Positions 17,079-37,653 of a stretch of DNA of 42,917 nucleotides are shown here, piece by piece; positions within the stretch are counted from its first letter, which is position 1; each line of letters begins with the position of its first letter. The position numbers were made by a program, and so were the translations under genes. Below the pieces are notes generated by a model, which saw nothing but the letters and a program-made list of their open reading frames with translations, did not search any database and had not been told where the DNA came from. Origin of the DNA: a virus (Duplodnaviria; Heunggongvirae; Uroviricota; Caudoviricetes); IMG/VR virus record IMGVR_UViG_2718218102_000002; one strand, given 5' to 3'.

Positions 17079-17445
17079 AAACAGCCATTCCACCATCAAC
17101 GTGTGTTTTTGCATCTGAGGACATAATCAGAATCACCCGACCAACATCCGCAAGCTCAACGGATTCCCCCGTTTCACCATCAACGCCACAGAGATGGAGG
17201 CAGGTCAGAACTCTGATGCGCGTTAACGCGCCGGATGTTTCCTCACGAACATCATGAGCCGCGGTTTCCCGCTCCCGGATATCCATATTCATAACCTGTA
17301 CATCATCGCCGGATGACTGCATTTCCTCTTCCCATTCTGCCACCCGCTGCGCTATCTCTGCGGCACTCCCGGATATATCCGGCTCACGCCCCAGAATCAG
17401 GGCCAGTTCATCAAGCCGTTTCAGATTTTGCTCTTTCGTTGCCAT
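17071..17445 (-). CDS. Head assembly/DNA-packaging accessory protein in the FI position (sequence appears diverged)
   Basis: Acidic 124-aa ORF between E and FII, starting MATKEQNLKRL, with a GGGGG Shine-Dalgarno 6 nt upstream. The call is positional. Confidence 0.5.
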   Translation of the reverse strand: MATKEQNLKRLDELALILGREPDISGSAAEIAQRVAEWEEEMQSSGDDVQVMNMDIRERETAAHDVREETSGALTRIRVLTCLHLCGVDGETGESVELADVGRVILIMSSDAKTHVDGGMAVYA

Positions 17446-17459
17446 ATCAGCCCCCTGTG

Positions 17460-17487
17460 AAAAAAGACACGGGGGCATTTCGCCCCC
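17460..17487 (-). terminator. Putative leaky terminator/attenuator just downstream of the major capsid gene
   Basis: Minus-strand RNA: GGGGGC-GAAAU-GCCCCC then GUGUCUUUUUU, directly followed by the SD and AUG of the FI-position gene. Confidence 0.5.
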
Positions 17488-17496
17488 GCTCACGGA

Positions 17497-18525
17497 TTAT
17501 TTCACCTGTACCACCACAAACTCATCCGGGTCCGGCAACACCATCAGCGGCGCGGACTGCGTCATGGTAAATTCACGGGCGGGATCCCCTACCGTCAGCC
17601 AGTGTTTCGGATAACGGGAAGAGGCCACCACACCTTCGGACAACGCCTGAGCATCCTGAATGGCACCGTAACAACGGATCCCATCTGCAGCAGTATTCCC
17701 CAGAACCAGCATGCCATCTGGAAGATAACGTTTTTCGATACCGTCTTCTGCTATATAAGACGTTTTCGCCACCACAATGGCCAGATCGCCGTAATACCCC
17801 TTGAAGGACACCACTGCGCCCAGATCTTTCACTGCCGTTTCGAGTTGAGAATTTGAACCGCGACGGGTATCCAGTTTTTCGCGGAACAGCTTAAAACCAT
17901 TCAGAAGACGCCAGACGGTACCGTCCATAATGGCAATATTCACAAGACCGCTGGCCTGGTCGCAGTAGAGGTCAATATCATGTGTAGGATCGAACGTGTC
18001 ACGATCCTGTTTTGACCACTCCTTACCACTACCCTGAGTGATGTTATTCTTCGTCGACCTGCCAAAATCGACCTCAATTTTCTCGAACTGGTCTCCTTCC
18101 ATGGTGTATTTGCCATACAACACAGCATTTACCGCCTGCATTTCTTCCACCTGGACAATCGCGTGCTCTTCCTGTTTGAGGTTATCGGTAATGATACGCA
18201 GACGGCGGTAAGCCGGATCATTCAGTTGAGATGGATCTTCACCAGGAAGGCGCTCAACCGCCTGCTGGTAATTAAATTCGTGTTTCGGCTTGACGTAGCC
18301 CGGACGCAACACGCGGGTTTCACCACCACGATGACGCAGCACTTTTCCTTCAACAACCGGGGAGACATAGGCCGCCACCGGCGTTTTTCCGGTAATTTTG
18401 TCCAGCATCACCTCTTCGGTATGGAAATTCACCGTACGGCGGAAAAACAGTTCCAGAAACAGCGCACGAAATTTAACTTTTTGTTCGGTATAACCGAGTA
18501 ACTGGCGGGTCGTAAACAATCCCAT
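17497..18525 (-). CDS. E: Major capsid protein E
   Basis: 342 aa; shares many blocks with lambda E as recalled (e.g. PGYVKPKHE, KLDTRRGSNS, TGDPAREFTM). Confidence 0.9.
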   Translation of the reverse strand: MGLFTTRQLLGYTEQKVKFRALFLELFFRRTVNFHTEEVMLDKITGKTPVAAYVSPVVEGKVLRHRGGETRVLRPGYVKPKHEFNYQQAVERLPGEDPSQLNDPAYRRLRIITDNLKQEEHAIVQVEEMQAVNAVLYGKYTMEGDQFEKIEVDFGRSTKNNITQGSGKEWSKQDRDTFDPTHDIDLYCDQASGLVNIAIMDGTVWRLLNGFKLFREKLDTRRGSNSQLETAVKDLGAVVSFKGYYGDLAIVVAKTSYIAEDGIEKRYLPDGMLVLGNTAADGIRCYGAIQDAQALSEGVVASSRYPKHWLTVGDPAREFTMTQSAPLMVLPDPDEFVVVQVK

Positions 18526-18582
18526 AAATCAGTTCCTTTCATTCAGAAATCAGTCAGGCCACCGCGGTGGCCTGATAACGTG

Positions 18583-18930
18583 TTACGGCAGCGCCGCGTG
18601 ACTCAGGGCACTGCCAGCAAAGGCGTTGGCCTTTTTGTGTTCATCCACACTTTCAGGCCAGTGGATTGCCTCCGTCGCAAAGGTTCCCGACTTGTAATAC
18701 GTCAGCGCCGTCTCTGTGCCTTCAAGCGGCAGTACCAGTATGCCAACCGCACTACCGGCTTTCTGTCCGTCCCAGACCACCAGTTTCCCGGTGGCTTCAT
18801 CCAGCATCAGGGGCGTCAGAGCCGGTGTTGCAGAAGAAATCCCGCTGCTGCCTGTGGCGGTATGAGCCGGATCATTACCGGCAAAAATACGTACTTCCGC
18901 ACGCTGTTCAGTGATGGTTTTCGTCACCAT
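18583..18930 (-). CDS. D: Head decoration protein D
   Basis: 115 aa with the NDPAHTAT, TPLMLD and YKSGTF motifs recalled from lambda gpD. Confidence 0.85.
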   Translation of the reverse strand: MVTKTITEQRAEVRIFAGNDPAHTATGSSGISSATPALTPLMLDEATGKLVVWDGQKAGSAVGILVLPLEGTETALTYYKSGTFATEAIHWPESVDEHKKANAFAGSALSHAALP

Positions 18931-18966
18931 ATTGTAAAAACCTCCTATTGATGGTCAGCACTGGCT

Positions 18967-20472
18967 TCATGGCATGGCCATGAGCATTTTCACGTCCGCA
19001 TCACCGTCTGCTGACGTCTGTGGCACGCCACCCTGTACCGCTGCCGGTGAATGGTTCGCCATGAAATGTTCAAACATGGCGGTTGTGGATGCAGAGACCG
19101 GTTCTGCCTTACCTGATCCCGCAGCCAGCACAGCCCGGGCGCACTCCACAGTTATTCCCGGGCAGGCAGCCAGCTGTTCAGCCTGCACCTCAGCCCCTTT
19201 TGCCTCATCCAGTGCCATGATCTGATCACGGAGTGATGGTCCGGCATCCGCCTGCGGTGAAGCAGCCAGGATCGGGCGGGCTTTTTCCACCGTCATCTCC
19301 GGCATCGCCGCCAGCGTTGCCGCCAGTTGTTCACGACCGTTCGCTTCTTCACACGCCATAATGCGATCGGCTTCACTCTGCGTGGATGCCACCGGCTGCT
19401 GCGGTGCCGCCGCGGCCAGAATCGCCCGGGCCTGTTCAACGCTCATGCCCTGTTGTCCTGCCAGCATCGTGGCAAGCTGTTCACGTCCTTTCGCTTCCTG
19501 GCATGTCAGGATCCCCATCACTCGCTGGTTCTCCTGCGCGGCGGCTTCCGTTGCAGTTAATTGCGGCATAGTGCCTCCTCTGACATTACTGTTCAGCGCC
19601 GTGGCCATCACACTGATGGCATCCGACGCATTGATTAATTCATCCGCCAGCCCGGCCTCAATGCCGGACTGACCTTCAAAAACAGCGGCCTCTGTTCCCG
19701 TGACTGCATCAACAGACAGACCGGTAAACATCGCCACTTTTTCGGCAAACATCCGGCGCGCCGCATCAATCCGCTGCTGCATGTCCTGGCGAACCTCTGC
19801 CGGCAACGCTTCAAACTGATTGCCATCCACCTTGTGCGCCCCTGAGTAAATCAGCGTGATATCCACACCGGCCTGCGCCAGATGACCGGCATAGCTGACA
19901 TGGCTCATCATCACGCCAATGGAACCGATACGGGATGTCTGGGTAACCAGCCGTCGGGAGCAGGCCGACGCCAGCAGCATGGCTGCAGAACAGGCCGTGT
20001 CATTGCACAGTGCCCAGACCGGCTTCTGCTGACGGAGGCGGTAAATCATGTCAGCGCAGTCAAACGCGCCGGCGGCCTGCCCGCCCGGACTGTCAATGTC
20101 CAGCAGTACGCCCCGCACCTGGCTATCCGCCATTGCCTGCTGAAGACAGGAGACAATACCGTCATAGCCTGTCATTCCGGAAAATGGCCGCATACCACCC
20201 AGCCGGTGCACCAGCGTGCCGGTCACCGGCAGTACAGCAATACCGTTCACCACCCTGTAAACACGGGCCGGTCGTTTACCTCCGGCCATGTACTCGTCCG
20301 TTTCAGCCAGCATTCCGAGAGCATCAAACTGTACCTGCTGTTGTGGTACCGAAAGACTTGCTGCCCCCATCTCGCGCCCGAGCGCGCAAAAGAAAACCCG
20401 CGCATAGGCGGGCTCCAGAAGCAGCGGTTCATTGAATGCTGCGGCAATAATGTGTGAAAGATTACGTCTCAC
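18967..20472 (-). CDS. C: Head maturation protease C (S49/ClpP-like) with nested scaffold (Nu3-like) C-terminal region
   Basis: 501 aa. N-terminal two-thirds resembles lambda C; the C-terminal part carries three tandem ~48-aa repeats where lambda has one. Confidence 0.85.
   Translation of the reverse strand: MRRNLSHIIAAAFNEPLLLEPAYARVFFCALGREMGAASLSVPQQQVQFDALGMLAETDEYMAGGKRPARVYRVVNGIAVLPVTGTLVHRLGGMRPFSGMTGYDGIVSCLQQAMADSQVRGVLLDIDSPGGQAAGAFDCADMIYRLRQQKPVWALCNDTACSAAMLLASACSRRLVTQTSRIGSIGVMMSHVSYAGHLAQAGVDITLIYSGAHKVDGNQFEALPAEVRQDMQQRIDAARRMFAEKVAMFTGLSVDAVTGTEAAVFEGQSGIEAGLADELINASDAISVMATALNSNVRGGTMPQLTATEAAAQENQRVMGILTCQEAKGREQLATMLAGQQGMSVEQARAILAAAAPQQPVASTQSEADRIMACEEANGREQLAATLAAMPEMTVEKARPILAASPQADAGPSLRDQIMALDEAKGAEVQAEQLAACPGITVECARAVLAAGSGKAEPVSASTTAMFEHFMANHSPAAVQGGVPQTSADGDADVKMLMAMP
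19114..19524 (-). repeat. Three imperfect tandem ~145-bp repeats inside the C/Nu3 coding region
   Basis: Repeated DNA blocks (e.g. ccagttgttcacgaccgttcgcttc / caagctgttcacgtcctttcgcttc), corresponding to protein repeats at about aa 317-357, 367-406 and 415-453. Confidence 0.7.
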
Positions 20473-22054
20473 GTGGTGTTGTCTCCTCTTCCGGCCTACG
20501 ACTCTCCGCTATCTGCTGCTGATACGCCTGCGCTATCCACACCGGACGTGAGAGTCCGGCTTTTTGCCGCTCAGCAGATTCCCTGACCTGCTGGCGGAAA
20601 ATGTCCTGATAATCCTCGCCCATCAGCGCCAGCTCTTTCTCATACGTGCTCAGTCCGGCCTCAATGCGCATCACTGATTCCTGGACTTCCTTGAGCCCGT
20701 CAATGGCCATTCTTCCGGCACCAATCCACTCTGCCCGTGACCAGGCTGATCGCGCCTGATAAAAATCAAAACGTGCCCGTGGCGGACGAATAATCCCCCG
20801 AAGAAGTGCCTCTTCCAGCCAGCAGGAAAACATCTGCGTGGCCAGCCGGGCCGCAATAAATTTTCGCCGCCCCATAAAATAGCGCCACGACTCATTGGCG
20901 GAGGCGCGGGCACTTGAGTAACTGACCTTCGAGTAATCACGGGACAACTGTTCGTAGGAAACGCCAAGACCGGCGGCGATATACCGCAGCAGCGCCTGTT
21001 CAAGCGCAGAAAATCCATTGTCTGAATCCTGCGCAGTCTGTAGTTTCAGATCATCACCAGGGAAAAGGTGCGGAATTTTGACACCGCCCAGTGTCACGTT
21101 ATTCGTGTCATACCAGCTGGAAAACTTCTCCAGAATATTAATAAGCGGATTATCCTTCTGCTCCTGTGGCGCGCCGGCGATATATTCAAAGGCCTTTTCG
21201 GTATCAAGTTCACTTTCAATCGTCGCTGCATACATCGCCTTCACTATGGCCGACTGAAGCTGTGTTGCCTGCAGGGAATCGAGCATCTTCAGCCGTTCCA
21301 TGACGCTGTAAAACTGATTAGCCCCACGGGTCTGCCCGTCCTCCACCGGCTCGAAAATATGCAGCATGGCCGGACGCCCGGTGGGAAGTTCACGCGGGAT
21401 CCGTTCCCATCGTCCACTACCAGAGAACGGAAAATCATCCTCACAGATATGGTACGCGACGGCACGGCCATATCGATCGACCTCCACACCGGCCCGCAGA
21501 AAACGGTTCCCCATACCGTGTCCAGGCGTGTCCACCCGTTTCGGACTCACGGCTTTAAAACGCGTACGGAATAACTGCGTGGTTTCCGTATCCCAGACCG
21601 GCTGCACAAAGATTTCGCCGTTAAACGCATGAACGCCCACACCTTCACGGATAAATTCCGTGAACGTGCGTTTTCCTTCCACGTCGATCTCGCCAAACAT
21701 CCCTTCGGCGTATTCCGACCAGGCCGCCTCCACCTCATCGACAAAGCTTTTTGCTGCGGTCTCCCGCATCCCCAGCCAGCGCCAGTTCGGACGGTAGCTG
21801 ATCAGAAACATATGCCCGACAATGTGATCCTTATGCAGAGCCACCGCATTAGCCGCTATTCCGTTATTGCGCACCAGATCATCTGCCCGGGCATTCCCCA
21901 GACGCAACGCGGGCAGCAGGGCCGCATCGGCACTCTGCGCCGGTGGCAACCACTCAGCCATTTGCCCGCCAAATCCTGCACCGCCCCCGTTGTAGCTGAG
22001 ACTCTCACGAAGCGGAACGCCGTTCACATCAATCAGGACAGGCGTTCGTTTCAT
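20462..22054 (-). CDS. B: Portal protein B
   Basis: Conserved portal blocks (e.g. VEDGQTRGAN, SAIVKAMYAATIESELDT). Start set at MKRTPV, which forms an ATGA overlap with the W stop. Confidence 0.9.
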   Translation of the reverse strand: MKRTPVLIDVNGVPLRESLSYNGGGAGFGGQMAEWLPPAQSADAALLPALRLGNARADDLVRNNGIAANAVALHKDHIVGHMFLISYRPNWRWLGMRETAAKSFVDEVEAAWSEYAEGMFGEIDVEGKRTFTEFIREGVGVHAFNGEIFVQPVWDTETTQLFRTRFKAVSPKRVDTPGHGMGNRFLRAGVEVDRYGRAVAYHICEDDFPFSGSGRWERIPRELPTGRPAMLHIFEPVEDGQTRGANQFYSVMERLKMLDSLQATQLQSAIVKAMYAATIESELDTEKAFEYIAGAPQEQKDNPLINILEKFSSWYDTNNVTLGGVKIPHLFPGDDLKLQTAQDSDNGFSALEQALLRYIAAGLGVSYEQLSRDYSKVSYSSARASANESWRYFMGRRKFIAARLATQMFSCWLEEALLRGIIRPPRARFDFYQARSAWSRAEWIGAGRMAIDGLKEVQESVMRIEAGLSTYEKELALMGEDYQDIFRQQVRESAERQKAGLSRPVWIAQAYQQQIAESRRPEEETTPRET

Positions 22055-22257
22055 AATTTCACTCCCAGCGGACGACGGCGACACCGGGTTGTCCCCAGTA
22101 CCGACTCCGCATCATTGATCGCCCGGTTAAGCTCATCCAGAGAAGCCGCCGTATATTCAATTCTGCGACCATCTTTCTGGACAGACACCACCCGTTTACC
22201 GGTTAATAAATCAAGGCGCGCCTGACGCAGCGCCTGCAGTTCAGCGACTGTAACCAT
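22051..22257 (-). CDS. W: Head-tail connector protein W
   Basis: 68 aa as in lambda W; contains TGKRVVSVQKDGRRIE. Confidence 0.85.
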   Translation of the reverse strand: MVTVAELQALRQARLDLLTGKRVVSVQKDGRRIEYTAASLDELNRAINDAESVLGTTRCRRRPLGVKL

Positions 22258-24169
22258 TCACTCCTCCGGACAGCTTCGCTGCCAGTTCTTTAAGGGTTGG
22301 CCGGGTCGTCTCTTCTTCCCGGGATTTTGCCAGTACAGCCAGATCAAGCTGCCAGCGTTGCACGGACACACGTAATGCCGCGTAGGCATACACCAGGCAG
22401 TCCAGCGCTTCGTTACGCCGCTTTTTGTTATCCCACAGCAGACGCATCTTTCCTTTTTCCCACTTCTCCACAAGCTCTTCCGCGACCAGTTGCTGCGCCT
22501 CTGTCTGCGAAAAAATCTCCGGATCATCAGGAAAACGGATGGCATACGACGTGGCTTCATCCACAGGCGTGGGATCGGCTTTCATACGGGCATAGAGAAT
22601 TTCTTTTGCGGTGTCCGTCCCCACTTCACACAGATACACGCCCCGCTGATTGCGGGTTTTTGGCATGGTGATCACCGGCTTGCCATAGACAGATGCGCCT
22701 TTTACCGGCAGCACCCGGAAAACACCGTGTTTTTTTGACCTCTGATAAACGATTTCGCCATCGATCCCCCCGATGTCCCAGCAGACACGGGAAATAGTCA
22801 TTTCGGTTCCGTCTGCATGGCGGTATTTTTTGTTGATCGCCGCATCCACACGTAACAGCGTCTCTTCCTCATCGGGACGCCCCATAATGATGATTTTATC
22901 CACCAGAAAGGCTTCCTCTCCCGGAGCCCATCCCCAGACATACATCTCAAAACGGTTTCGCTGCGAGTCAATGCCCGCCGTCAGATAAACCACCCGGGCA
23001 GGCACCGCCGCCGTGTAACGCACAACCTTATCCATCAGCACCTGGTGATCGAGTTTTTCGCCCACAGCCTCTTCCCAGGTCTCGCCCAGCGTGGTGTTCA
23101 CAAAGGTTTTCAGGCCGTTGGGATCTTTCAGTGCATCCAGCCAGTCATAGACAATCTGTACCCAGGTGGTGAACGGACTGTACGCCGTCCAGATATGGAA
23201 AGTGATGGAGCGCGGCGGCGGAATTTCATCACCCCGGGCGCTGAAAAACATCAGGCCGTCACGGGTCCACATGCCCGTGTTTTCACAGATCCACCGCCCG
23301 TTACTCTGGTCAAGCTCAGACTGATGGATCACACAGCCATGATGCTCACAAAGGTAGAAAACACTTTCTGGCTTATTCTTCTCCCACTTAAGACCGAAAG
23401 GCGAGGCATCATCGCCAAATTTCAGATACTGCTCCTCCCCACAGTGCGGACAGGGCACATAAAAACGCATGAAGTGTGCCGACTCGTTAGCGGCTTTTTC
23501 GATCTGGCAGGAGCCTTTGATTTTAGGCGTCGAGCCGCGAATGGATTTTGGCCATACAGAGCCCTCAATACGTTTATCCCCCAGCAGGGTTGGCGAACCC
23601 TCTTTTTCAACATCCGGTTCGAACGAGGAAAGCTCGTCATAACAGACCACATCCACGGATTTTTCACGGTAGTTTTTTGCTGCCGCACCACCCAGACACC
23701 AGAACCCCACACCGGAGGAAAAACGCTTCAGGGTGAGCGTATTATCGCGGTGTTTTCTTCCGAACCATGGAGCCAGCTCCAGCAATGCAGGAACATCCCT
23801 TATCGTTGGCTCAACATGAGATTTCATAAAATCTTCAGCAGCTGAGTCCGTGGGCTGAAAAAGAAGGCTGTTGCGTGATTTATGCTCAATAAAATAAGCC
23901 TCCACTCCCAGCAACATCTTTGTATAACCAACACGGGCAGATTTAATCAGGTTAACCGTGCGAATCAGATCGTTGCCCATACAGTTCATGATGCCAACCT
24001 GAAACGGCAGTGTTTCCCACCGCCCCGGGGTATAAGACGACTCTTTAGGAAGGTAATAATGTTTATTGGCCCACTGAACTGTCGTCAGTGGAACAGGAAT
24101 AATGAGAGATAAAAGCCCTGTAGCTATCGCACCGGCTGCATTAGCTGCCTTCTGCGCGTCTGAAATCAT
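22241..24169 (-). CDS. A: Terminase large subunit A
   Basis: Blocks recalled from lambda gpA ([16 protein letters not shown], Walker-type region). Start set at MISDAQ, overlapping the Nu1 3' end by 29 nt. Confidence 0.9.
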
Positions 24170-24689
24170 CGATCCACCCGCCCACGTTTTCACCGGCCTT
24201 AGCTGCAACATTGGAGGCTTTCGCGATTTCAGTTTTCACCACATCAAGGTGTGATGGTGAAATGTCCGGATATTTACGCTGTAATGTCAACGGCACACGC
24301 ACAAGTATCCCCGAAATCTCCTGTGCCACACGTTGCAGAATGAAGGTAAACAGTTCAGTTTCCAGCACTACTCCGTCTTCACGGGCATTTTTCAGTTCCT
24401 GCGCATCTGCCTGCGCTTTTGTGAGCCGGTAGCGTTCATAGTCAATGGTGCCGGGTTGTAAATCTGACTCCGCTGCCGCACGCAAATCGTCCAGTTCTTT
24501 GCGGAGCTTTTCGTTTTCGATATCAGTTTCCCTCTGCGCATACCACTGAATTGCCATGGCAGTATCAAATACAGATTCAATGCCCTTACTACCTTTGGAG
24601 GCGCAAGGGAGTCCCTGAGACTGCCAGCGTTCAATCGTCCGCGGGTCCACGTTGAAAATTTCGGCAAGCCTCTTTTTATTAACCTTCAT
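24141..24689 (-). CDS. Nu1: Terminase small subunit Nu1
   Basis: 182 aa, starting [12 protein letters not shown] with a winged-helix N-terminus; sits about 170 bp downstream of cosN. Confidence 0.9.
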
Positions 24690-24856
24690 GAAAACAACCC
24701 ATTATCAAATACAAGGCCCGACATGAAAACGCCAGAAAAAGGCATTTTCGGACACTTTCATGTCGGACCTTTACGGATGCAATATTAAAAAAAAACAAAA
24801 AGTTATATTCGAGAAGTACCGACACGATTTTCCCTGAAAAATTTTCATAAATAGTG

Positions 24857-24868
24857 AAAAACCGCGAG
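24857..24868 (-). other. cos: cosN 12-nt cohesive end (GGGCGGCGACCT on the minus strand)
   Basis: Exact 12-mer, with flanking context CAGGTTACG|GGGCGGCGACCT|CGCGGTTTTTCACTATTTATGAAAAT matching the recalled lambda cos junction. Confidence 0.85.
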
Positions 24869-25026
24869 GTCGCCGCCCCGTAACCTGTTGGATCGACGGA
24901 AAGGACCCGAAAACGAGAATAATTATCACTTACAGCAAGAATCGAATCTGATCTATTATGGTGCTTGCTATTATGTGCCGGCACAAGTGCGTCGTTTACC
25001 GTCATTTCACACAGAGGCATCATCAA

Positions 25027-25278
25027 ATGAAAATCAGAAATATTCTCGCTATCTCCCTTGCGACATCATCCTTCAGTTGCCTGGCATTTAAATCCTCGCC
25101 CAATGTGCTACCAGGACCAACGAATCAACTAACTGCGGTAGAAAGTAAAATTATCGGACATTTTTATGCCCCACACAGTACATTACCCGGAACAACCATC
25201 ACAGGGACATGTGACGCCTCCCCCGTCCCGGGATGCACCTGCCCGTTTTGTACTATGCTGCGTAGCCAAAACCGATAA
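25027..25278 (+). CDS. Hypothetical small secreted Cys-containing protein
   Basis: Internal ATG of track ORF 24958-25278 gives an 83-aa product with a signal-peptide-like N-terminus (MKIRNILAISLATSSFSCLA) and a CxCPFC motif near the C-terminus. Confidence 0.3.
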   Translation: MKIRNILAISLATSSFSCLAFKSSPNVLPGPTNQLTAVESKIIGHFYAPHSTLPGTTITGTCDASPVPGCTCPFCTMLRSQNR

Positions 25279-25641
25279 CATCCGCATTTACCTGGTATTC
25301 CATGATGAGTTCACGCAGCGACTGATAGAGGAAGGAAAGATGGTTAGTAAAAGCAAGGCACATTGCCGCCGCATGCTGCAGGCATTGCAACAGACGAGAG
25401 CAGGTATTTTTGACCAGTTGGAAAACTGCCAGCATACTTTGCCCGAGTATATCGCCATCTCATCGGAAACCAGTGCAACTCTTATTCATCGGGTTCCACC
25501 AGAGAAAAAGAAGAAATGAACAGTGAGGCGTTGTGTGGCATACAACGCCTTCTTCCATCATTCCTCGTCAGCCATGACAAAAATATAACCGCTGGCTCTT
25601 TCATTTTTCTCCTGCTTCCAGCCCCTCTCTATCTGGAAGCA

Positions 25642-25968
25642 TCAAGGACGTGACGGCGTAAAGATAAATTGTCTCTTCACTCCCTGACAGGGGCGATTCT
25701 TTTCAAATCGCCATTTCGCCATGGCCTTCACCACTTCATCACGAAACAAATTATGAGGCTCTGAGCGGAGAAAAACGATCCGTGTCACAGTCCCATCAGC
25801 ACCAATATCGAACTTAACCTCAACCAGCCCCTTGATATAATTTGCTGCAGCATATTCCGGATATCGTGGATACACCGTCACTAATTGCCGGGGCTCATCA
25901 GCTTTTTGCTGCGAGCATCCCACTGCCAGGACAGATAACAGAAAAAGTAGTAAAAGGCGTCTTTTCAT
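25642..25968 (-). CDS. Lipoprotein with TonB C-terminal-like domain (accessory gene)
   Basis: Start set at MKRRLLLLFLLSVLAVGCSQ (lipobox LAVGC), with an AGGA Shine-Dalgarno. The mature part resembles the TonB_C fold pattern (YPRYPEYAAANYIKGLVEVKFDIGADGTV…AMAKWRFE). Confidence 0.55.
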   Translation of the reverse strand: MKRRLLLLFLLSVLAVGCSQQKADEPRQLVTVYPRYPEYAAANYIKGLVEVKFDIGADGTVTRIVFLRSEPHNLFRDEVVKAMAKWRFEKNRPCQGVKRQFIFTPSRP

Positions 25969-26448
25969 TTTTATTCCTACGGGTCTTATTCTGACAATAT
26001 ATCCTGTGTTCCAGACTGCCACATCACCACATCCTGTGCCATTATCTGACTCACATTACATACATCGCATCGGGATACAGTAGTAGCACTTTCTGTAATA
26101 CAGCTTCCTGTTTCTTCCACCATCGCACCGGGATAAACCCGCGAATCATTAACGCGGTAAAAACCCGGTGTGCATCGTTTTTAATTATTCCCGCACACTC
26201 ACGCAGAAGGAATTCCCCGTCGGGCTACGGTCATGGTTAATGCGGGAATACGGCGACGATACAGCGCAGCTAAAAGGGTAATGGACGGATAGACCGGTTT
26301 ATTTCATTCCACAGGATTCTGAGTGTCCCCAACTTCCTCCAATAGTCTGAGCCCACCTGTGTAGTTTTAATTTTCATCAATCCATTTAACTATCGTTTAA
26401 TTGTTGTCACATAGGATTCTGCCGTTTTTAACAATGCAGGATAATAAG

Positions 26449-26742
26449 ATGAAAAAAATGTTGTTTTCTGCCGCTCTGGCAATGCTTATTACAGGATGTG
26501 CTCAACAGACGTTTACTGTTGGAAACAAACCTACAGCAGTAACACCAAAGGAAACCATCACCCATCATTTCTTCGTTTCGGGAATTGGGCAGAAGAAAAC
26601 TGTCGATGCAGCAAAAATTTGTGGTGGTGCAGAAAATGTTGTTAAAACAGAAACCCAGCAAACATTCGTAAATGGATTGCTCGGTTTTATTACTTTAGGC
26701 ATTTATACTCCGCTGGAAGCGCGTGTGTATTGCTCACAATAA
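26449..26742 (+). CDS. bor: Bor lipoprotein (serum resistance)
   Basis: 97 aa, starting MKKMLFSAALAMLITGCAQQ; opposite strand to the late genes, between Rz and cos as in lambda. Confidence 0.9.
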   Translation: MKKMLFSAALAMLITGCAQQTFTVGNKPTAVTPKETITHHFFVSGIGQKKTVDAAKICGGAENVVKTETQQTFVNGLLGFITLGIYTPLEARVYCSQ

Positions 26743-26773
26743 TTGCATGAGTTGCCCATCGATATGGGCAGCT

Positions 26774-27235
26774 CTATCTGCACTGCTCATTAATATACTT
26801 CTGGGTTCCTTCCAGTTGTTTTTGCATAGTGATCAGCCTCTCTCTGAGGGTGAAATAATCCCGTTCAGCGGTGTCTGCCAGTCGGGGGGAGGCTGCATTA
26901 TCCACGCCGGAGGCGGTGGTGGCTTCACGCACTGACTGACAGACTGCTTTGATGTGCAACCGACGACGACCAGCGGCAACATCATCACGCAGAGCATCAT
27001 TTTCAGCTTTCGCATCAGCTAACTCCTTCGTGTATTTTGCATCGAGCGCAGCAACATCACGCTGACGCATCTGCATGTCAGTAATTGCCGCGTTCGCCAG
27101 CTTCAGTTCTCTGGCATTTTTGTCGCGCTGGGCTTTGTAGGTAATGGCGTTATTACGGTAATGATTAACAGCCCATGACAGGCAGACGATGATGCAGATA
27201 ACCAGAGCGGAGATAATCGCGGTTACTCTGTTCAT
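26774..27235 (-). CDS. Rz: Spanin inner-membrane subunit Rz
   Basis: 153 aa, starting [26 protein letters not shown]. Confidence 0.9.
26833..27015 (-). CDS. Rz1: Spanin outer-membrane lipoprotein Rz1, embedded in Rz in the +1 frame
   Basis: 60 aa with lipobox (VVVGC) and a proline run (PPPPP), lying wholly inside Rz. Confidence 0.85.
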
Positions 27236-27729
27236 TGCTGACCCCACAAACAGATTTCACGCTCAATCTCACGACGAGTCATGAGACCTTTCCATTGCTT
27301 ACCGCCAGCATATGTCCAGCGACGTAGCTGATCACATGAGCCTTTGATATCGCCCTGGTTTATTTTGCGAAGAAGCGTCGATGTTCTGAAATTACCAGCA
27401 CCCACGTTGTAAACGAATGAGTAAAGAGCGCCGCGCGTTGTTTCCGGTATATCGACTGTGATGTACGGGTTAATTTGTCTGGCGACAGTGGCAAGGTCTT
27501 TATTCAGGAGTGCTTTGCATTCTGCTTTGGTATACGTTTTACCGAGCATGATGTCTTTTCCTGTATGCCCGTGACATACAGTCCATACACCAACAATATC
27601 TTTGTATGGTATGTAGCTGACACCTTCCAGACCATCGTTACCACTTGGGCCAGTGATTAACACTGATGCTATAGCAATTGCTCCGCCACCAATAGCAGCA
27701 GCAACGGCTTTTCGTAATGATGGAGGCAT
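27232..27729 (-). CDS. R: SAR endolysin (T4-lysozyme fold, phage 21 R-like)
   Basis: Gly/Ala-rich signal-anchor-release N-terminus ([18 protein letters not shown]) followed by a lysozyme E…D…T catalytic pattern. Confidence 0.85.
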
Positions 27730-27944
27730 TATTCACCTCTCGCAGCCTTGCGCTTATCTTCTTTAATCTTGAAATAAAGGTTTGTCAGGTACGTCAGCAG
27801 GCCAAATACCAGGCTACCCAGCACACCTATTGCCGCCCACTGTGAGGGCGTGACTTTATCGAGCAACTGTAAAAACCAGTACCCGGCACTACCTGCTGAG
27901 GTACCATAGGCGACACCCGTTGTTAACTTATCCATGGATTTCAT
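27729..27944 (-). CDS. S: Pinholin (phage 21 S-like) with dual-start MKSM motif
   Basis: 71 aa with two TM segments; MKSMDK start allows the 71-aa antiholin and 68-aa holin forms. Confidence 0.85.
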
Positions 27945-28073
27945 AACCCCACCTCGCAGACAAAGCGGGTGTAAATTAAGGGGATACTACGTATCGCAAT
28001 AAAGGCAGAAACGTAACAGATTCGGAGTCAGTGAATAACTCAGGTATTGGGTTATCAGCTAATATCGAGACTC

Positions 28074-28106
28074 AAAAAATGGAAAAACCCGCTCGACGGC
28101 GGGTTT
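28074..28106 (-). terminator. Putative intrinsic terminator upstream of the lysis cassette (tR'-like position)
   Basis: Minus-strand hairpin aaacccgc-cgtcga-gcgggttt followed by ttccatttttt, about 130 bp upstream of the S start. Confidence 0.45.
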
Positions 28107-28532
28107 AAGCTGTGTGACGAAGTAACCACTCTTAACAGCATAACCAATTTTTTACGTACGTAAACTACTAAATGATATTTGTGAGAATGCCACCGAGTGT
28201 TCAAAACACCACCACAAATGCATAAGAAAACTTCAACAAATAACCAGTTAATAATTTCCGATGTTATTTTTAGTTTGTTTAAATTAAGCTAAAGAATTAT
28301 AGAGCACTTATAAATAAGTGCCATTAATATAAATTAGCTAATAGATTTATTTTTGTTCAGACAAGAGCCATGAATAGGATTAGATAGAAAAGGTTCCGAT
28401 AAAAATAGAGATCTACTTCACAAATTAAATGAGAAACTAAAACTTACATCTTGAAATAATCACATTGATTAGATGAATATTTATCGCGCAGTGACATCAT
28501 TTTTTAATAATAGTTCAAAAAAAGGGCGTACA

Positions 28533-29615
28533 ATGAAAAAATTAACAGTGGCAATTTCTGCTGTAGCTGCATCAGTACTGATGGCGATGTCTGCTCAGGC
28601 AGCTGAAATTTATAATAAAGACAGTAACAAGCTGGATCTATACGGGAAAGTTAATGCCAAGCACTACTTCTCCTCTAATGATGCAGATGATGGTGATACT
28701 ACTTATGCCCGTCTTGGCTTCAAAGGTGAAACCCAAATCAACGATCAACTGACTGGTTTCGGTCAGTGGGAATATGAATTCAAAGGCAACCGTGCTGAAT
28801 CTCAAGGTTCTTCCAAAGACAAAACCCGTCTTGCATTTGCAGGCCTGAAATTTGGTGATTACGGCTCAATCGATTACGGCCGTAACTACGGTGTAGCATA
28901 CGACATCGGTGCGTGGACTGACGTTCTGCCAGAATTCGGTGGTGATACCTGGACCCAAACAGATGTGTTCATGACTGGTCGCACTACTGGTGTTGCAACT
29001 TATCGTAACAACGACTTCTTTGGTCTGGTCGATGGCCTGAACTTTGCTGCTCAGTATCAGGGTAAAAATGACCGCACTGACGTAACTGAAGCCAATGGTG
29101 ATGGTTTCGGTTTCTCCACTACTTATGAGTATGAAGGATTCGGCGTGGGTGCAACCTATGCTAAATCAGATCGCACTGACGGTCAGGTCGCCTATGGTAA
29201 GAGCAAATTCAATGCCTCCGGCAAAAATGCGGAAGTATGGGCTGCAGGCCTGAAATATGATGCGAACAATATCTATCTGGCTACCACATATTCTGAAACT
29301 CAGAATATGACCGTTTTTGGTAATAACCATATTGCAAACAAAGCACAAAACTTTGAAGCAGTAGCACAATATCAGTTTGACTTCGGTCTGCGTCCATCTG
29401 TTGCTTACCTTCAGTCAAAAGGTAAAGACCTTGGTGTTCATGGTGACCGAGACTTAGTCAAGTATGTCGATGTCGGTGCTACTTACTACTTTAATAAAAA
29501 CATGTCCACTTTTGTTGATTACAAAATCAACTTAATTGACGATAGTAAGTTTACCAAAACAGCTGGTATTGATACCGACGACATCGTCGCTGTAGGTCTG
29601 GTTTATCAGTTCTAA
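28533..29615 (+). CDS. Outer membrane porin, OmpC/OmpF/NmpC (Lc-like) family
   Basis: Start set at MKKLTVAIS with a cleavable signal peptide; classic porin N-terminus [16 protein letters not shown] and C-terminal VGLVYQF. Confidence 0.85.
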
Positions 29616-29632
29616 TCTGACTTACGAAAAAG

Positions 29633-29668
29633 ATATGTTGCGGGAGGCTTTGCCTCCGCAACATATAA
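29633..29668 (+). terminator. Palindromic hairpin downstream of the porin gene
   Basis: atatgttgcgggaggc-ttt-gcctccgcaacatata; no clear U-tract. Confidence 0.4.
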
Positions 29669-29743
29669 GTGGAGCCCTCAAGCCACTTCCTTTAGAAGCA
29701 CTACCTTGCTTCTTACTATATAAACCTTCTGTTATATATTACC

Positions 29744-29769
29744 CTTTATTTTGGGGGCGTTTCCACGCC
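29744..29769 (+). terminator. Putative intrinsic terminator
   Basis: ggggcgt-ttcc-acgcccc followed by atttttaa. Confidence 0.45.
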
Positions 29770-29803
29770 CCATTTTTAATAACTTTTAGTAAACAATTGC
29801 ATA

Positions 29804-30187
29804 TCAATTAGAATTATTAGCAACGATATCCATATCTAACCGGATATCTAATGCCATTAACATCCCTTCAATTATGCCCTCAGCCTTCTGTAACCTTTTC
29901 CCGATATAACCATCCGAGCAGCAATGCTTACTTGCCAGTGACATGAATGTCATACCACATACATAATAATCTACTAATAAATCGTGTAAATCGCTGTTGT
30001 TCTTTTTCAGACGGGCCATGCACCCGCAAATGATCATCGCGTCATCGTCACAACATTGCGGGCGAGATTTTACTTTTGAAGGAATTAATCCCTTAAAACC
30101 GGCGGCAATGGACGACCAGGTCACATCTTCATGATTATTAGCCGCCCACGCACCCCAACGCTCAAGAACCATCTGAATATCACGCAT
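29804..30187 (-). CDS. Late-gene antiterminator Q, DLP12 QuuD/phage 82-type
   Basis: Start set at [18 protein letters not shown], giving 127 aa. Cys-rich ([18 protein letters not shown]) and sits just upstream of the late region. Confidence 0.75.
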
Positions 30188-30409
30188 CAACTTACTCCAC
30201 AAAAATCAGACCAGAACGCCAATTACAAGCAAAAATCAACAAAACAGTATTAGTTGATTGTTATCTCTGACTTCATACTCCTGTTCCTGTCAGGGTTTTG
30301 GCGTAATTCTTCAGTATTCGGTAATCGGTCAAAACAGAACCGGGGAAACGATATAAGCGCAGACGCCCCCAGCGGTGGCGAAGAAGTTCTGCCATATTAA
30401 ACTCAAACA

Positions 30410-33539: not shown

Positions 33540-34465
33540 AGCTCCACCCCGTAAATCCAGTCAGTGTTTGTCAGGTCGAGTTTTGGTTTGCTGGCAGTCA
33601 CACCAGCCTGTTGCTTGTTGCGGTTAATTTCGAGCTGAGTCCACTTGTCGCGGAGTTTTGCTGGACTCAGCACGTTACCGGACCAGAAGTTGTCCTGGCA
33701 GGCCCAGCGGAACAGAACGCACATGTCGCGATGGTTACGCCCGTCACGCTCACGCATCAGGCGGATGTCGTTGGCCCACCCTGCAAAATTCGGTTTTCTG
33801 GCTGATGGCGCGATGGTCTTCACCATGTCAAACATCCACTCTGCGGCGGTCAGGTCTTCTGCTGTCCCCCACTTGCTGCCGCTCTGAATTGCAGCATCCG
33901 GTTTCACCACAGGAAGATCGTTTTCTGGCTGGTCAGAGGATTCGCCAGAATTCTCGGACGAAAAAGGTTTTATATTGTCTTTTGTTAGTTTGTCTTTTGT
34001 GTTTACCTGATTCGGGTAAACGTCTTTACCTGATTTGGGTAAACTTTTCTTACCTGATTCAGGTAAATTTACCTCTTTCAGGTAAACTTTATTTTTCTTA
34101 CCTGATTCGGGTAATGTTGACCATTCACTGACCACATTATTAATGCCGATATTCCGCCCGCTCTGAATAAAAATCCCACGCTTTACCAGAACACTTTTTG
34201 CAGCAGAACACTTGTGCGGCAATATCCCGGTCAACTCGGAAAGTTGCTCGTTGCTCACCCAATCCAGTTTTTTATTAAAGCCATATGTTTTGCGCATGAC
34301 AGCCAGGAAGACCAGAAGCTGGTGCTGTGTTAATCCGGCCAGCATCACAGCTTCCAGCAACTCATTTGCAATGCGCGTATAACCATCATCGAGATCTGCC
34401 ACGCGCGGCTCCTTTTGTGCCACATCCGGCACTGGAAAATTGAATATCTCAGCAGTGTTTGCCAT
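33536..34465 (-). CDS. O: Replication initiator O
   Basis: Start set at MANTAEIFNF (GGGAGG Shine-Dalgarno). N-terminal domain resembles lambda O (VADLDDGY, RKTYG-N); the gene contains the iteron array. Confidence 0.85.
   Translation of the reverse strand: MANTAEIFNFPVPDVAQKEPRVADLDDGYTRIANELLEAVMLAGLTQHQLLVFLAVMRKTYGFNKKLDWVSNEQLSELTGILPHKCSAAKSVLVKRGIFIQSGRNIGINNVVSEWSTLPESGKKNKVYLKEVNLPESGKKSLPKSGKDVYPNQVNTKDKLTKDNIKPFSSENSGESSDQPENDLPVVKPDAAIQSGSKWGTAEDLTAAEWMFDMVKTIAPSARKPNFAGWANDIRLMRERDGRNHRDMCVLFRWACQDNFWSGNVLSPAKLRDKWTQLEINRNKQQAGVTASKPKLDLTNTDWIYGVEL
34002..34115. repeat. ori: Origin of replication: five ~18-19-bp palindromic iterons (TTTACCTGATTCGGGTAAA-like) inside O, next to an AT-rich stretch (33961-34000)
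   Basis: Iterons at 34002-34020, 34025-34043, 34050-34067, 34068-34086 and 34098-34115. Confidence 0.75.
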
Positions 34466-34551
34466 AATTCCTCCCGCAATGAGTGTGTTACGATTTGCAC
34501 CTGAAAGTCGGTTCTGTTCGCGCAGACCGGCTTTCGCCATTTCTGAACCTG

Positions 34552-35097
34552 TCATATTGCCCCCAGCATGGTGGTGACCATCGCCATCAATGGACCAGCC
34601 AGATCCGGGTCCACACGAAACATCGACACAATGCCTTCACTCATCTCCTTCAGTTTCTGGTGGCGTGGTGCGTTGAGAATGACAGCCTGTTTTGCCTCAC
34701 TGAGTTCCTTTTCCATTTCAGCCAGCCGAGCCATGTAGCTATCCTGCTCAACCAGGTGGCCGCGATATTCCAGCGGTAGTACCGCCAGAATTGCCGGGGT
34801 CAGTTCACGCACGTTATTTCGGTATTTTTCAGAATCGAATTTGTTATCGAGAAAGCGGAACAGCTTCTGGCGTGCACGGCTGACATCATCAGGGAAATCG
34901 ATGGTGCCGCCGCCCTGCTCCCGATACTCATTCACAATGAGTGCGGCAACAACATCCTGATTATCTGCAGCCGACCAGGCGCGAACGGCATCACGGATTT
35001 TTTCGTGGCCTGGCGCCTGTTTTGTTTGAGAACGATTTATCACCGCAGTCGGGCTAAATCCGCTAGTCTGTTGGTATGTAAGTGGTTGCATAGTCAT
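34552..35097 (-). CDS. Hypothetical regulator in the cII position (CII-like or YdaT-like); function uncertain
   Basis: 181-aa ORF between cro and O; no family confidently recognised by eye. Confidence 0.4.
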   Translation of the reverse strand: MTMQPLTYQQTSGFSPTAVINRSQTKQAPGHEKIRDAVRAWSAADNQDVVAALIVNEYREQGGGTIDFPDDVSRARQKLFRFLDNKFDSEKYRNNVRELTPAILAVLPLEYRGHLVEQDSYMARLAEMEKELSEAKQAVILNAPRHQKLKEMSEGIVSMFRVDPDLAGPLMAMVTTMLGAI

Positions 35098-35121
35098 TGC
35101 CTTATCAGTTAACGCCGCAGT

Positions 35122-35349
35122 TTAGGCGGCAGAATTACTCGCGTTAAACAATGGTGCGAGGTCGGGACGAATATCTGCTGGTTTAATCTTTCCACCAGTG
35201 GCTGAGACAATTTTCATTACATAGCGGGCATCAATTCCGCCACCGTGTAGCCAACGCCAAACTGTGGGTTGGGCTACACCGCATAGATCTGCCAGTCGTT
35301 TTTGACTACCTGTAATACTGATTGCGAGTTGAATGGTTTGATTTGTCAT
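35122..35349 (-). CDS. cro: Cro-like HTH repressor
   Basis: 75 aa from the ATG at 35349 (track start is a TTG). HTH motif QKRLADLCGVAQPTVWRW; divergent from cI across the operator region. Confidence 0.7.
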   Translation of the reverse strand: MTNQTIQLAISITGSQKRLADLCGVAQPTVWRWLHGGGIDARYVMKIVSATGGKIKPADIRPDLAPLFNASNSAA

Positions 35350-35459
35350 TATCAATTCCTATTGGTATTGCAATGAATAAATAATAGCAATGCGTATTAA
35401 TCCAAGCAATAGCAAAACGTGTTTTGACCATCAATACGCAAGCGTATAAATTAAAACTT
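35350..35459. promoter_or_regulatory. Right operator/promoter region (oR with divergent pR and pRM-like promoters)
   Basis: Three ATAGCAAT/ACCAATAG-type sites spaced about 22-23 bp apart (35359-35375, 35381-35398, 35404-35418). Plus strand: TTGACC (35424-35429) and TATAAA (35445-35450) just before the cI ATG. Minus strand: TTGCTT-17nt-TATTAT upstream of cro. Confidence 0.5.
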
Positions 35460-36152
35460 ATGAAAAAAGAAACTCTTGCTGATCGCTTAAACCTAGCGAT
35501 GGAACAATCTGGAATGTCTCAAGGCGCTCTTGCAAAGGCGTCTGGCGTAGCTCAACCCACAATCTGGAGACTGACAAGCGGCAACGCGCGCGGCTCAACA
35601 AAAATTGTTGAAATAGCTAATGCATTGGGTGTTCGAACAGAATGGCTCTCATCAGGCATAGGCCCGATGAGAAATGACGGTCAACAATCAGGGAAGCCTG
35701 CTGTCAGCTATTCCAAATACTTTAAAATTGACGTTCTTGATATAGAAGTGAGTGCCGGGCCGGGAGTCATCAACCGTGAGTTTGTAGAAGTTCTACGCTC
35801 GGTTGAGTACTCGTTTGACGATGCTCGTCACATGTTCGATGGTAGGAAGGCAGAAAATATCCGCATCATTAACGTACGCGGTGACAGCATGTCAGGAACG
35901 ATTGAACCTGGTGATCTTCTATTCGTTGATATCACGGTTAAATCTTTCGACGGTGATGGTATCTATGCGTTTCTGTACGACGACACAGCCCATGTAAAGC
36001 GCCTGCAAATGATGAAGGATAAGCTGCTGGTTATCTCTGATAACAAAAGCTACTCACCGTGGGACCCGATCGAGAAAGATGAGATGAACCGGGTATTTAT
36101 CTTCGGGAAAGTTATTGGGAGCATGCCGCAGACGTATAGGAAGCATGGATAG
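35460..36152 (+). CDS. cI: CI-type repressor (N-terminal HTH plus C-terminal S24 LexA-like autopeptidase)
   Basis: HTH motif QGALAKASGVAQPTIWRL; GDSM and a downstream Lys (HVKRL) typical of the S24 Ser-Lys dyad. The ATG at 35460 is preferred over the track TTG at 35424. Confidence 0.85.
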   Translation: MKKETLADRLNLAMEQSGMSQGALAKASGVAQPTIWRLTSGNARGSTKIVEIANALGVRTEWLSSGIGPMRNDGQQSGKPAVSYSKYFKIDVLDIEVSAGPGVINREFVEVLRSVEYSFDDARHMFDGRKAENIRIINVRGDSMSGTIEPGDLLFVDITVKSFDGDGIYAFLYDDTAHVKRLQMMKDKLLVISDNKSYSPWDPIEKDEMNRVFIFGKVIGSMPQTYRKHG

Positions 36153-36232
36153 TACCAATTAAAAATTATCAACCGGGCATTGTGCTCATTCAGTAAAACA
36201 ACTTAATTATTCATTTTAGAATGGAGAACTTA

Positions 36233-37294
36233 ATGGATACTTTAAAATATGAGAAATTCTCTGATTTTGATCACAATGACCCATTTTTTGACTCTTTAAA
36301 AAAAGATTATAAAGAGTTTCCTCTTTGGTTAGAAAAAAAAGCCAGAGAAGGAGAATCAGCTTATGTGCTCTATGATGACAAGCATAAAATCGAAGGTTTT
36401 ATGTATCTAAAAGAAAATGATGATGCAAATGACATTAATCCAGCGCTCCCACCAGGACGTCATCTAAAGATAGGAACATTCAAATTTGAATCTAAAGGCA
36501 CCCTTCGCGGACAACGATTTCTAAAAAAAGCGTTTGACCATGCATTTTCATCAAAATCTGATGATATTTATGTTACTGTTTTCGACAAACACGTCCATCT
36601 AATAAAACTTTTCCAAACGTACGGATTTTACATTCATGGTGAAAAAGAAACACATAACGGGAAAGAGTTTGTATATGCGAGGTCTTTGCATGAGCCTTAT
36701 GGTGATATTTTATTAGATTACCCTCGAATAATGACATCAAGGGCCAACAAATATTTACTGGCGATTTATCCCGAATATCACACTAGACTATTCCCTGATT
36801 CAAAACTTGTAAATGAATCACCAGATATTGTCAAAGATATATCCCATGCTAACAGCATTCATAAAATTTACATATGTGGAATGCGTTCTGTGATGGGAAT
36901 GAAAAGAGGAGATATCATTGTCATCTATAGAACCGGAGACAAAAAAGGGCCAGCTCGCTATCGTTCTGTAGCCAGTACATTATGTGTAGTTGAGAGCGTA
37001 AAAAATATTTCTGAATTTTTAAGCGAAGATAGTTTTGTAGACTATTGTATTCGTTTTAGCGTATTTTCTGAAGATGAACTCAGAAAAATCTATAAAGAAC
37101 GTCGATACCCTTTCATTATAAGATTCACATACAATCTGTCTTTGCCAAAGAGACCCAATCGTGCTATTTTAATAGATCATGTGGGGCTAAATGGTTCGCG
37201 TGCATTCCGATGGAGTCACTTTAAACTCACAAATGAGCAGTTCTTAAAGATCATCGAGTTAGGCAAGATAAATGAAAGTTTTATTATCCATTAA
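36233..37294 (+). CDS. Hypothetical two-domain protein: possible GNAT-like N-terminal half and ASCH/PUA-like C-terminal half
   Basis: 353 aa from the second ATG (GGAG Shine-Dalgarno). N-terminal segment LRGQRFLKKAF…IYVTVFD…LFQTYGFYIHG loosely resembles GNAT motifs A/B. Domain calls are by eye and tentative. Confidence 0.55.
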   Translation: MDTLKYEKFSDFDHNDPFFDSLKKDYKEFPLWLEKKAREGESAYVLYDDKHKIEGFMYLKENDDANDINPALPPGRHLKIGTFKFESKGTLRGQRFLKKAFDHAFSSKSDDIYVTVFDKHVHLIKLFQTYGFYIHGEKETHNGKEFVYARSLHEPYGDILLDYPRIMTSRANKYLLAIYPEYHTRLFPDSKLVNESPDIVKDISHANSIHKIYICGMRSVMGMKRGDIIVIYRTGDKKGPARYRSVASTLCVVESVKNISEFLSEDSFVDYCIRFSVFSEDELRKIYKERRYPFIIRFTYNLSLPKRPNRAILIDHVGLNGSRAFRWSHFKLTNEQFLKIIELGKINESFIIH

Positions 37295-37649
37295 GCCTGA
37301 GTTTGCAGAAAAAATATTGAACGGAACAAAGCGGTTCGAGTTTCGTAAAGGTATATTCAAAAATCCGCAAATTAGCACCGTTGTTATTTATGCCACGATG
37401 CCATTAGGTAAAGTTGTTGGTCAATTCCGTATTGAATCAATACTAAGTGACGAACCGGAATCTCTTTGGAAAAAGACGGAAAAGCACGCAGGTATTTCTA
37501 AGCAATTTTATGACTCATATTATTCAGGTAGAGAAAAGGCCTACGCAATAAAAATTGGTGAAGTGGAAAGATATAAAGAACCAATTCCTATCTCTGCTCT
37601 AGGTAGTAATATTAAGCCACCACAATCATATCTTTACCTACCTGCGTAA
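37272..37649 (+). CDS. ASCH-domain protein (PUA-like fold)
   Basis: 125 aa; N-terminus MKVLLSIKPEFAEKILNGTKRFEFRK is typical of ASCH proteins. Overlaps the upstream gene by 23 nt. Confidence 0.65.
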   Translation: MKVLLSIKPEFAEKILNGTKRFEFRKGIFKNPQISTVVIYATMPLGKVVGQFRIESILSDEPESLWKKTEKHAGISKQFYDSYYSGREKAYAIKIGEVERYKEPIPISALGSNIKPPQSYLYLPA

Positions 37650-37653
37650 GAAT

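Follow-up and report, generated by a model that had tools for sequence, protein, structure and literature searches.

A predicted phage 21-type lysis cassette in a lambdoid prophage, with a mosaic joint inside its endolysin gene

The lysis genes and their products

Four lysis genes, S, R, Rz and Rz1, are confirmed on the minus strand between positions 26774 and 27944 of the window, by which we mean the whole 42,917-nucleotide stretch of viral DNA that was analysed (IMG/VR record IMGVR_UViG_2718218102_000002). Each of them lies where a preliminary description of this DNA had placed it (Table 1), and the Pfam matches of all four are far beyond chance. The stop codon of S and the start codon of R have one base in common (TAATG), the R stop and the Rz start overlap in ATGA, and Rz1 is contained wholly within Rz, beginning 220 nt past the Rz start, i.e. 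in the +1 frame (offset 1). A mechanical list of open reading frames extends Rz upstream to a GTG at 27247; the ATG was taken here, which is the start used by lambda, phage 21, DLP12 and the annotation of E. coli 536. The reference sequences compared were those of lambda, the complete phage 21 genome (GenBank OL657228) and DLP12 from E. coli K-12.

Table 1. Positions of the lysis genes, their neighbours and associated signals in the window
Feature	Position	Strand	Description
S	27729-27944	-	71 aa, N-terminus MKSMDKL; essD allele; predicted antipinholin form
S short product from Met4	27729-27935	-	68 aa; in-frame ATG is codon 4; predicted pinholin proper
R	27232-27729	-	165 aa; predicted SAR endolysin, GH24-type lysozyme; contains the DLP12-type/21-type crossover
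Rz	26774-27235	-	153 aa counted from ATG; predicted i-spanin
Rz1	26833-27015	-	60 aa; predicted o-spanin lipoprotein; embedded, +1 frame of Rz
Shine-Dalgarno sequence, GAGGTGGGG	27948-27956	-	Upstream of the S starts; aligns with the annotated phage 21 S RBS; identical in DLP12
Terminator-like hairpin and T tract	28085-28106	-	Late strand, between porin gene and S; -12 kcal/mol, z -2.55
Intact OmpC/NmpC-type porin gene (context)	28473-29615	+	PF00267, E 2.2e-151; NCBIfam OmpC subfamily
Strong hairpin and T tract, tR'-like	29627-29666	-	Just downstream of Q, 12 nt past the porin stop; -21.9 kcal/mol, z -6.1
Late antiterminator Q (context)	29804-30187	-	QuuD (DLP12) type; annotated quuD in E. 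coli 536
bor/iss lipoprotein gene (context)	26449-26742	+	PF06291, E 1.1e-30; convergent with Rz; annotated iss in E. coli 536
cos junction	24867-24890		Phage 21 genome ends join at 24878/24879; phage 21 annotates cos at nt 1-12

The S product matches the Pfam family PF04971, 'Bacteriophage P21 holin S', over residues 5-67 (E 2e-35; bit score 121, cutoff 26). Its amino acid sequence is 100% identical to that of DLP12 EssD and 86% identical to that of phage 21 S, the corresponding nucleotide identities being 97.7% and 76.9%. The exact S protein occurs in 41 phage records, at an identity of at least 99%. Relative to S21, 10 of the 71 residues differ (I7L, S8T, I11V, W27L, Q30K, S32T, L47F, F49L, R61K and R64K), and the timing of lysis could therefore differ as well. 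The dual-start motif of S21, Met1-Lys2-Ser3-Met4, is present in S with the ribosome-binding site at the equivalent position. In the phage 21 record the 71-aa product is annotated as the antiholin and S21-68 as 'pinholin class II', and both starts are probably in use here too. A 71-nt segment round the dual start folds no better than its shuffled versions (z -0.48), and no claim is made for a regulatory RNA structure like lambda sdi at this place.

In pinholins of the S21 type the first membrane segment is releasable, while the second lines the hole and has conserved Gly, Ser and Thr positions that are functional there. Residues 8-27 of S are weakly hydrophobic and fall under the hydropathy threshold, 12 of these 20 being Ala, Gly, Ser or Thr; residues 31-60 are strongly hydrophobic. 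Within the second segment G40, G43, S44, G48, T51, T54 and N55 are all invariant with respect to S21. The S21 pinholin makes holes on the nanometre scale that depolarise the membrane and do not pass a soluble endolysin (PMC6116005). S is most probably a pinholin of this type, for which pinhole size and timing are predicted by homology to S21.

R belongs to the phage lysozymes of PF00959 (E 7.6e-45) and is 98% identical both to R21 and to DLP12 RrrD. It matches over its full length the structures PDB 3HDE (E 4.9e-110) and, for RrrD, 4ZPU (E 1.3e-110), with 3 differences in each case, as well as 3HDF (98%), which like 3HDE is a structure of R21. Residues 1-90 are identical to those of R21. The N-terminus is weakly hydrophobic, with Ala, Gly, Ser or Thr at 13 of the 20 positions between residues 8 and 27, and a pattern search finds the lysozyme triad E35-X8-D44-X5-T50. 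An E-X8-D-X5-T triad together with a SAR-like N-terminus forms the sequence criteria for SAR endolysins, whose definitive test consists of Sec-dependent export without cleavage, followed by release and activation upon depolarisation by the pinholin (PMC9239132). R thus described is probably a SAR endolysin of the R21 type, with SAR release predicted from its homologues.

Direct BLASTP comparison rules out lambda-type S and R. Lambda S (107 aa) gives no alignment with S at E<=100, and the best match between R and the lambda R transglycosylase has an E value of 4.1 over 11 residues. The preliminary description had held that the lysis genes are not lambda S and R but a 71-aa pinholin with an MKSM dual start and an endolysin of the phage 21 kind. 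Each part of this stands, R in particular being 98% identical to R21 as represented by 3HDE.

Rz matches PF03245 (E 2.6e-54) and comprises a hydrophobic stretch at residues 1-27, the N-terminal membrane anchor, and a periplasmic domain, with cysteines at positions 99 and 152. Rz1 matches PF06085 (E 2.9e-20), carries a VVGC lipobox with Cys20, has a further cysteine at position 29 and is proline-rich, with 10 Pro in the mature part. These are the sequence features of a two-component spanin, and the pair is predicted to be one, with the embedded architecture of lambda Rz/Rz1. Identities amount to 99% (lambda), 97% (phage 21) and 96% (DLP12 RzpD) for Rz, and to 100% (phage 21), 98% (lambda) and 98% (DLP12) for Rz1. 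The earlier designation, a lambda-like Rz with Rz1 embedded in the +1 frame, is accurate as to likeness and frame, but the label cannot tell the references apart, given that identities of 96-100% are found for Rz and Rz1 in lambda, phage 21 and DLP12 alike.

Affinities of the surrounding DNA and the joint within R

The DNA upstream of S has its counterpart in DLP12. The block ybcN-ninE-ybcO-rusA-ylcG-quuD is 96.1% identical to that of DLP12, the porin gene is 87.7% identical at the nucleotide level to the IS5-disrupted nmpC of DLP12, and the spacer between S and the porin gene is 89.8% identical. The Q protein is 96% identical to QuuD, 22% to Q21 and 11% to lambda Q, in agreement with its earlier assignment to the DLP12 type. 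The porin gene lies between Q/pR' and S, antisense to late transcription; judging from this order, late transcripts would have to cross it in antisense, and DLP12 has the same layout. Promoter and terminator assignments in this region are pattern-based. The hairpin at 29666-29627 is conserved in DLP12 and in phage PhiR57_1 and, by its position, is a likely late terminator of the tR' type. The whole window is devoid of tRNA genes, and phage 21-like tRNA genes upstream of S are accordingly rejected. An Rfam scan of the whole window returned a single match, IS009 at 1675-1873, and nothing in the lysis region.

The place where DLP12-type DNA gives way to phage 21-type DNA was mapped by sliding-window identity and by a three-way alignment with 137 informative sites. 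Between 27959 and 27664 DLP12 is favoured by 58 informative sites and phage 21 by 1; between 27568 and 26400 phage 21 is favoured by 72 and DLP12 by 6. The switch between 27664 and 27568 therefore places a crossover inside R, at about codons 22-54, in a conserved stretch of the gene. It is the sole joint near the cassette, and it coincides neither with a gene border nor with the border of the cassette. Farther on, phage 21 sequence continues at 99.6-100% identity through bor and a TonB-like gene as far as cos; the nucleotide identity of bor is 100% to phage 21 bor, as against 93.5% to lambda and 92.9% to DLP12 borD. Relative to the reference genomes, the cassette is chimeric, with Q, porin, S and the 5' part of R of the DLP12 type, and the 3' part of R, Rz, Rz1, bor, cos and the head genes of the phage 21 type. 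A joint within the endolysin gene is a small, typical case of lambdoid recombination at conserved intragenic stretches.

The correspondence with phage 21 extends over most of the late region and beyond. In BLASTN comparisons, window positions 6688-24878, with the tail and head genes, align with phage 21 nt 18189-1 at 97.9% identity, and positions 24879-27945, the right end from cos to S, with nt 42931-39865 at 97.8%. Three further segments also match phage 21: 38325-41126 with the recombination genes (97.0%), 41166-42917 with xis and int (98.2%) and 1-874 with the cargo gene sitD (98.2%). Of the sit cargo, the window contains sitD alone. Window and phage 21 agree at 98-100% in the head proteins Nu1, A, W, B, C, D, E, FI and FII; with FI set apart, the identity of these proteins to their lambda counterparts is 52-67%. 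The tail proteins Z-H are 96-98% identical to lambda and phage 21 alike.

These comparisons alter the earlier picture of a phage 21-type cassette in an otherwise lambda-like late region. The description of the tail and recombination genes as near-lambda is borne out, since identities to lambda of about 96-98% are found for the tail genes Z-J and for the recombination genes, but these genes are equally close to phage 21. The head half of the late region was misjudged, as was the DNA from cos to S, and the gene in the FI position, said to be diverged, is phage 21 FI itself (100% identity) and has no lambda match. The immunity region at 34000-38400, which had been called novel, matches phages 4A7, Lambda_4C10, 1W and 3W along its entire length at 98.9% identity. 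As for the cassette being a module of the phage 21 type, this holds for the kind of S and R, but the S allele is DLP12 essD and the boundary runs through R. The observation made in the preliminary description is therefore confirmed, and its interpretation is supported in part. The prophage is a relative of phage 21, in reverse orientation, rather than a relative of lambda. It is a genome of the phage 21 type in which the nin/Q/porin/S block is of the DLP12 type and the immunity region is one that known phages also have. As a correction of annotation, 21-type sequence covers the heads, cos, the 3' part of R, Rz/Rz1, bor, int and sitD.

A proposed lysis pathway and competing explanations

Most probably a lambdoid prophage resembling phage 21 uses these four genes as its lysis cassette, which acts through a pinholin, a SAR endolysin and a two-component spanin; we put the probability of this reading at roughly 0.9. 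Gene identities, near-identity to studied proteins, motifs and architecture are what was observed here. For the mechanism we draw on work done with phage 21 and lambda, and infer it from the 86-100% identity of the products to proteins that have been studied. The pinholin/SAR-endolysin/spanin pathway has been reviewed (PMC6116005); PMC9239132 and the annotation of the phage 21 record are further sources.

Late transcription would start just downstream of Q, be rendered terminator-resistant by the QuuD-type Q protein, cross the porin gene in antisense and then reach S, R and Rz/Rz1. From the MKSM dual start two S products would be made, namely the 68-aa pinholin and a 71-aa form whose additional Lys would make it an antipinholin that delays triggering. 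R would be exported by the Sec system and, tethered through the weakly hydrophobic SAR domain at its N-terminus, stay inactive in the inner membrane. When a set time is reached, the pinholin would make nanometre-scale holes and the membrane would depolarise. Depolarisation would free R, which would refold into an active lysozyme with E35, D44 and T50 and degrade the murein. A complex of Rz, in the inner membrane, and Rz1, an outer-membrane lipoprotein, would then disrupt the outer membrane.

An alternative, which seems improbable, sees in the cassette a module domesticated by the host, as has been proposed for DLP12 of K-12, serving low-level cell-wall turnover or vesicle control and not the lysis of a live phage. 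The complete identity of S with K-12 EssD could be understood in this way, as could the terminator-like hairpin just upstream of S and the presence of similar sequence in 5289 of 5426 complete E. coli genomes. Moreover, the DLP12 lysis module is reported to modulate the production of outer-membrane vesicles and to be transcribed although that prophage is defective (PMC7918800). The cassette described here, however, is part of a prophage that carries full-length int/xis, recombination, replication, Q, head and tail genes, and its late block agrees throughout with phage genome records at 99.7% identity. Besides, a host role and a lysis role are compatible with each other.

It is less probable still that S makes large holes as a canonical holin and that R is an ordinary soluble endolysin passing through them, as in lambda. 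Hole size cannot be read from a sequence, and some phages with exported endolysins do use such holins (PMC6116005), a support that is of a generic kind. Against this, neither S nor R is similar to its lambda namesake, S is 86% identical to an experimentally defined pinholin and has the second membrane segment conserved, and R has a SAR-type N-terminus besides being 98% identical to R21. The earlier framing, in which a foreign phage 21 module was inserted whole into a lambda-type late operon, can be practically dismissed. The near-lambda tail genes Z-J and recombination genes (about 96-98%) that would speak for it are just as close to phage 21. Rz and Rz1 are likewise 98-99% identical to lambda, but Nu1-FII and cos, together with all the DNA between cos and the middle of R, have the sequence of phage 21, with an identity of no more than 52-67% between the head proteins and those of lambda. 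The one joint near the cassette lies within R, between DLP12-type and 21-type DNA.

Returning to the pinholin/SAR-endolysin/spanin pathway, a speculative extension, to which we would attach little weight, concerns what the joint may have brought together. It pairs the essD-type pinholin and its porin/terminator context with the 21-type 3' part of the endolysin gene and the spanins. In the lysogen, the hairpin at 28106-28085 could serve to insulate S and the lysis genes after it, an intact and inducible prophage might then also provide the low-level, host-beneficial expression of the DLP12 kind (vesicle formation, cell-wall turnover), and the 10 differences from S21 might set another lysis clock.

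Relation to known lysis systems

Of the systems compared, the cassette of phage 21 has the same gene order, overlaps and product lengths (71, 165, 153 and 60 aa), the MKSM dual start, the SAR N-terminus and the catalytic triad. In the phage 21 record the homologues are annotated as antiholin, pinholin, SAR endolysin, i-spanin and o-spanin. R (98%), Rz (97%) and Rz1 (100%) are close to identical in the two, and the downstream DNA with bor, the TonB-like gene, cos and the heads is 99-100% identical. The differences lie in S, for which identity is only 86% (aa) and 76.9% (nt), and in the DNA upstream of the S ribosome-binding site, which is unrelated; there phage 21 has Q21, pR' and tRNA-Asn/Thr, whereas the window has the QuuD-type Q and the porin gene.

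DLP12, with its genes essD, rrrD (ybcS), rzpD and rzoD, shares the layout quuD-porin-S-R-Rz/Rz1-bor (S 100%, Q 96% and R 98% identical), and the intergenic region between Q and the porin gene, with its hairpin, is conserved as well. The porin gene is IS5-disrupted in K-12 but intact in the window, from mid-R onwards the window follows phage 21 instead, and DLP12 is without the head and tail genes present here. The lambda cassette occupies the same position in the late operon and obeys the same three-step logic, and its Rz (99%), Rz1 (98%) and bor (93.5%, nt) are near those of the window; in contrast, its S and R have no detectable similarity to S and R described here.

Close relatives are also found among deposited phage genomes and in E. 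coli genomes. The late block at 16900-30300 is present over 100% of its length, at 99.7% identity, in PhiR57_1 (PV340572) and PhiR63_2 (PV340574), which we presume to be plaque-forming from their deposition as phage genomes with a named host. PhiR57_1 differs in having another immunity and nin region. A 3.3-kb region, 26400-29700, recurs at 100% identity in E. coli 536 and in many other complete genomes, where its genes are annotated essD, rrrD, rzpD, iss and ompC, and related sequence is the rule among complete E. coli genomes, as noted above. The 536 prophage, which adjoins icd, has IS100 inserted in int and gives no megablast match to the head region of the window (16853-24384), its head genes having the lengths of those of lambda. 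The occurrence of a sister prophage with a differing head block shows that the head module is freely exchanged.

A five-gene lysis module of the phage 21 type has also been described in another lambdoid phage (PMC12315714). To judge by these similarities, the cassette is the well-studied lysis system of phage 21 and DLP12, already known, and it can be regarded as ordinary because it is well studied and identical in many E. coli genomes. Its import beyond correct annotation is small, since this is a textbook lysis system that is already annotated in thousands of E. coli genomes and in several phage records.

The late operon and a crossover in the endolysin gene

The endolysin gene R contains a recombination crossover, which the informative sites place between 27568 and 27664. 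Upstream of it these sites resemble DLP12, a cryptic prophage of E. coli K-12, and downstream of it they resemble phage 21. The late operon also carries an intact porin gene in antisense orientation, lying between quuD, the late antiterminator gene, with the late promoter pR' on one side and S on the other. It is only 87.7% identical in nucleotide sequence to nmpC, the K-12 counterpart in DLP12, and identity falls to about 78% in its 3' half (about 29100-29500), possibly reflecting variation in the surface loops.

Two hairpins followed by T tracts, both terminator-like, occur on the late-transcript strand. The one following quuD is also kept in DLP12 and in the phage record PhiR57_1. The other, next to S, could insulate the lysis genes in a lysogen. 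No tRNA genes were found in the whole window; in phage 21, by contrast, the stretch from pR' to S includes tRNA-Asn and tRNA-Thr.

Features located in the window
Feature	Position	Strand	Remarks
sitD, partial	1-874		98.2% identity to phage 21
IS009 (RF02111)	1675-1873	-	Rfam match, 221 bits (gathering score 117); inside tail-fibre-assembly region
Small TonB C-terminal-domain protein gene	25642-26022	-	between bor and cos
bor	26449-26742	+	phage 21 bor, 100% nucleotide identity
Hairpin with T tract	28085-28106	-	immediately upstream of S; -12 kcal/mol
OmpC/NmpC-type porin gene	28473-29615	+	intact
Hairpin with T tract	29627-29666	-	directly after quuD; -21.9 kcal/mol, z -6.1
Immunity and early-replication region	34000-38400		gene content from E. 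coli 536 annotation

The sit cargo region, the tail-fibre patch and genes near cos

The first base of the window falls inside the sit cargo region, and the sitD piece has its counterpart in the phage 21 cargo operon sitABCD, which encodes an iron/manganese ABC transporter. Between sitD and the shared part of J, the interval 874-6688 departs from phage 21; lambda stf/tfa pieces match it at 79-93% and tfaD of DLP12 matches one part. This interval is a separate mosaic patch, and it probably affects host range. On the Rz side of cos, bor is annotated in E. coli 536 as iss, a serum-survival gene. The TonB-like gene is 100% identical in nucleotide sequence to CPT_21_73 of phage 21. Its start is ambiguous: the annotations of phage 21 and E. 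coli 536 give a product of 108 aa, and reading from a GTG gives one of 126 aa.

Immunity region and comparison with related prophages

By the E. coli 536 annotation, the immunity and early-replication region encodes an XRE/CI-like repressor and a small HTH protein, and a YdaT-domain gene occupies the cII position. The region is common to phages 4A7, Lambda_4C10, 1W and 3W at 98.9%, and differs from the immunity regions of both lambda and phage 21.

The E. coli 536 prophage adjoining icd is near-identical elsewhere, but gives no megablast match to 16853-24384 of the window. Its head genes have the lengths of those of lambda, whereas the heads of the window are 21-type. Its int carries an IS100 insertion, while that of the window (41775-42917) is uninterrupted.
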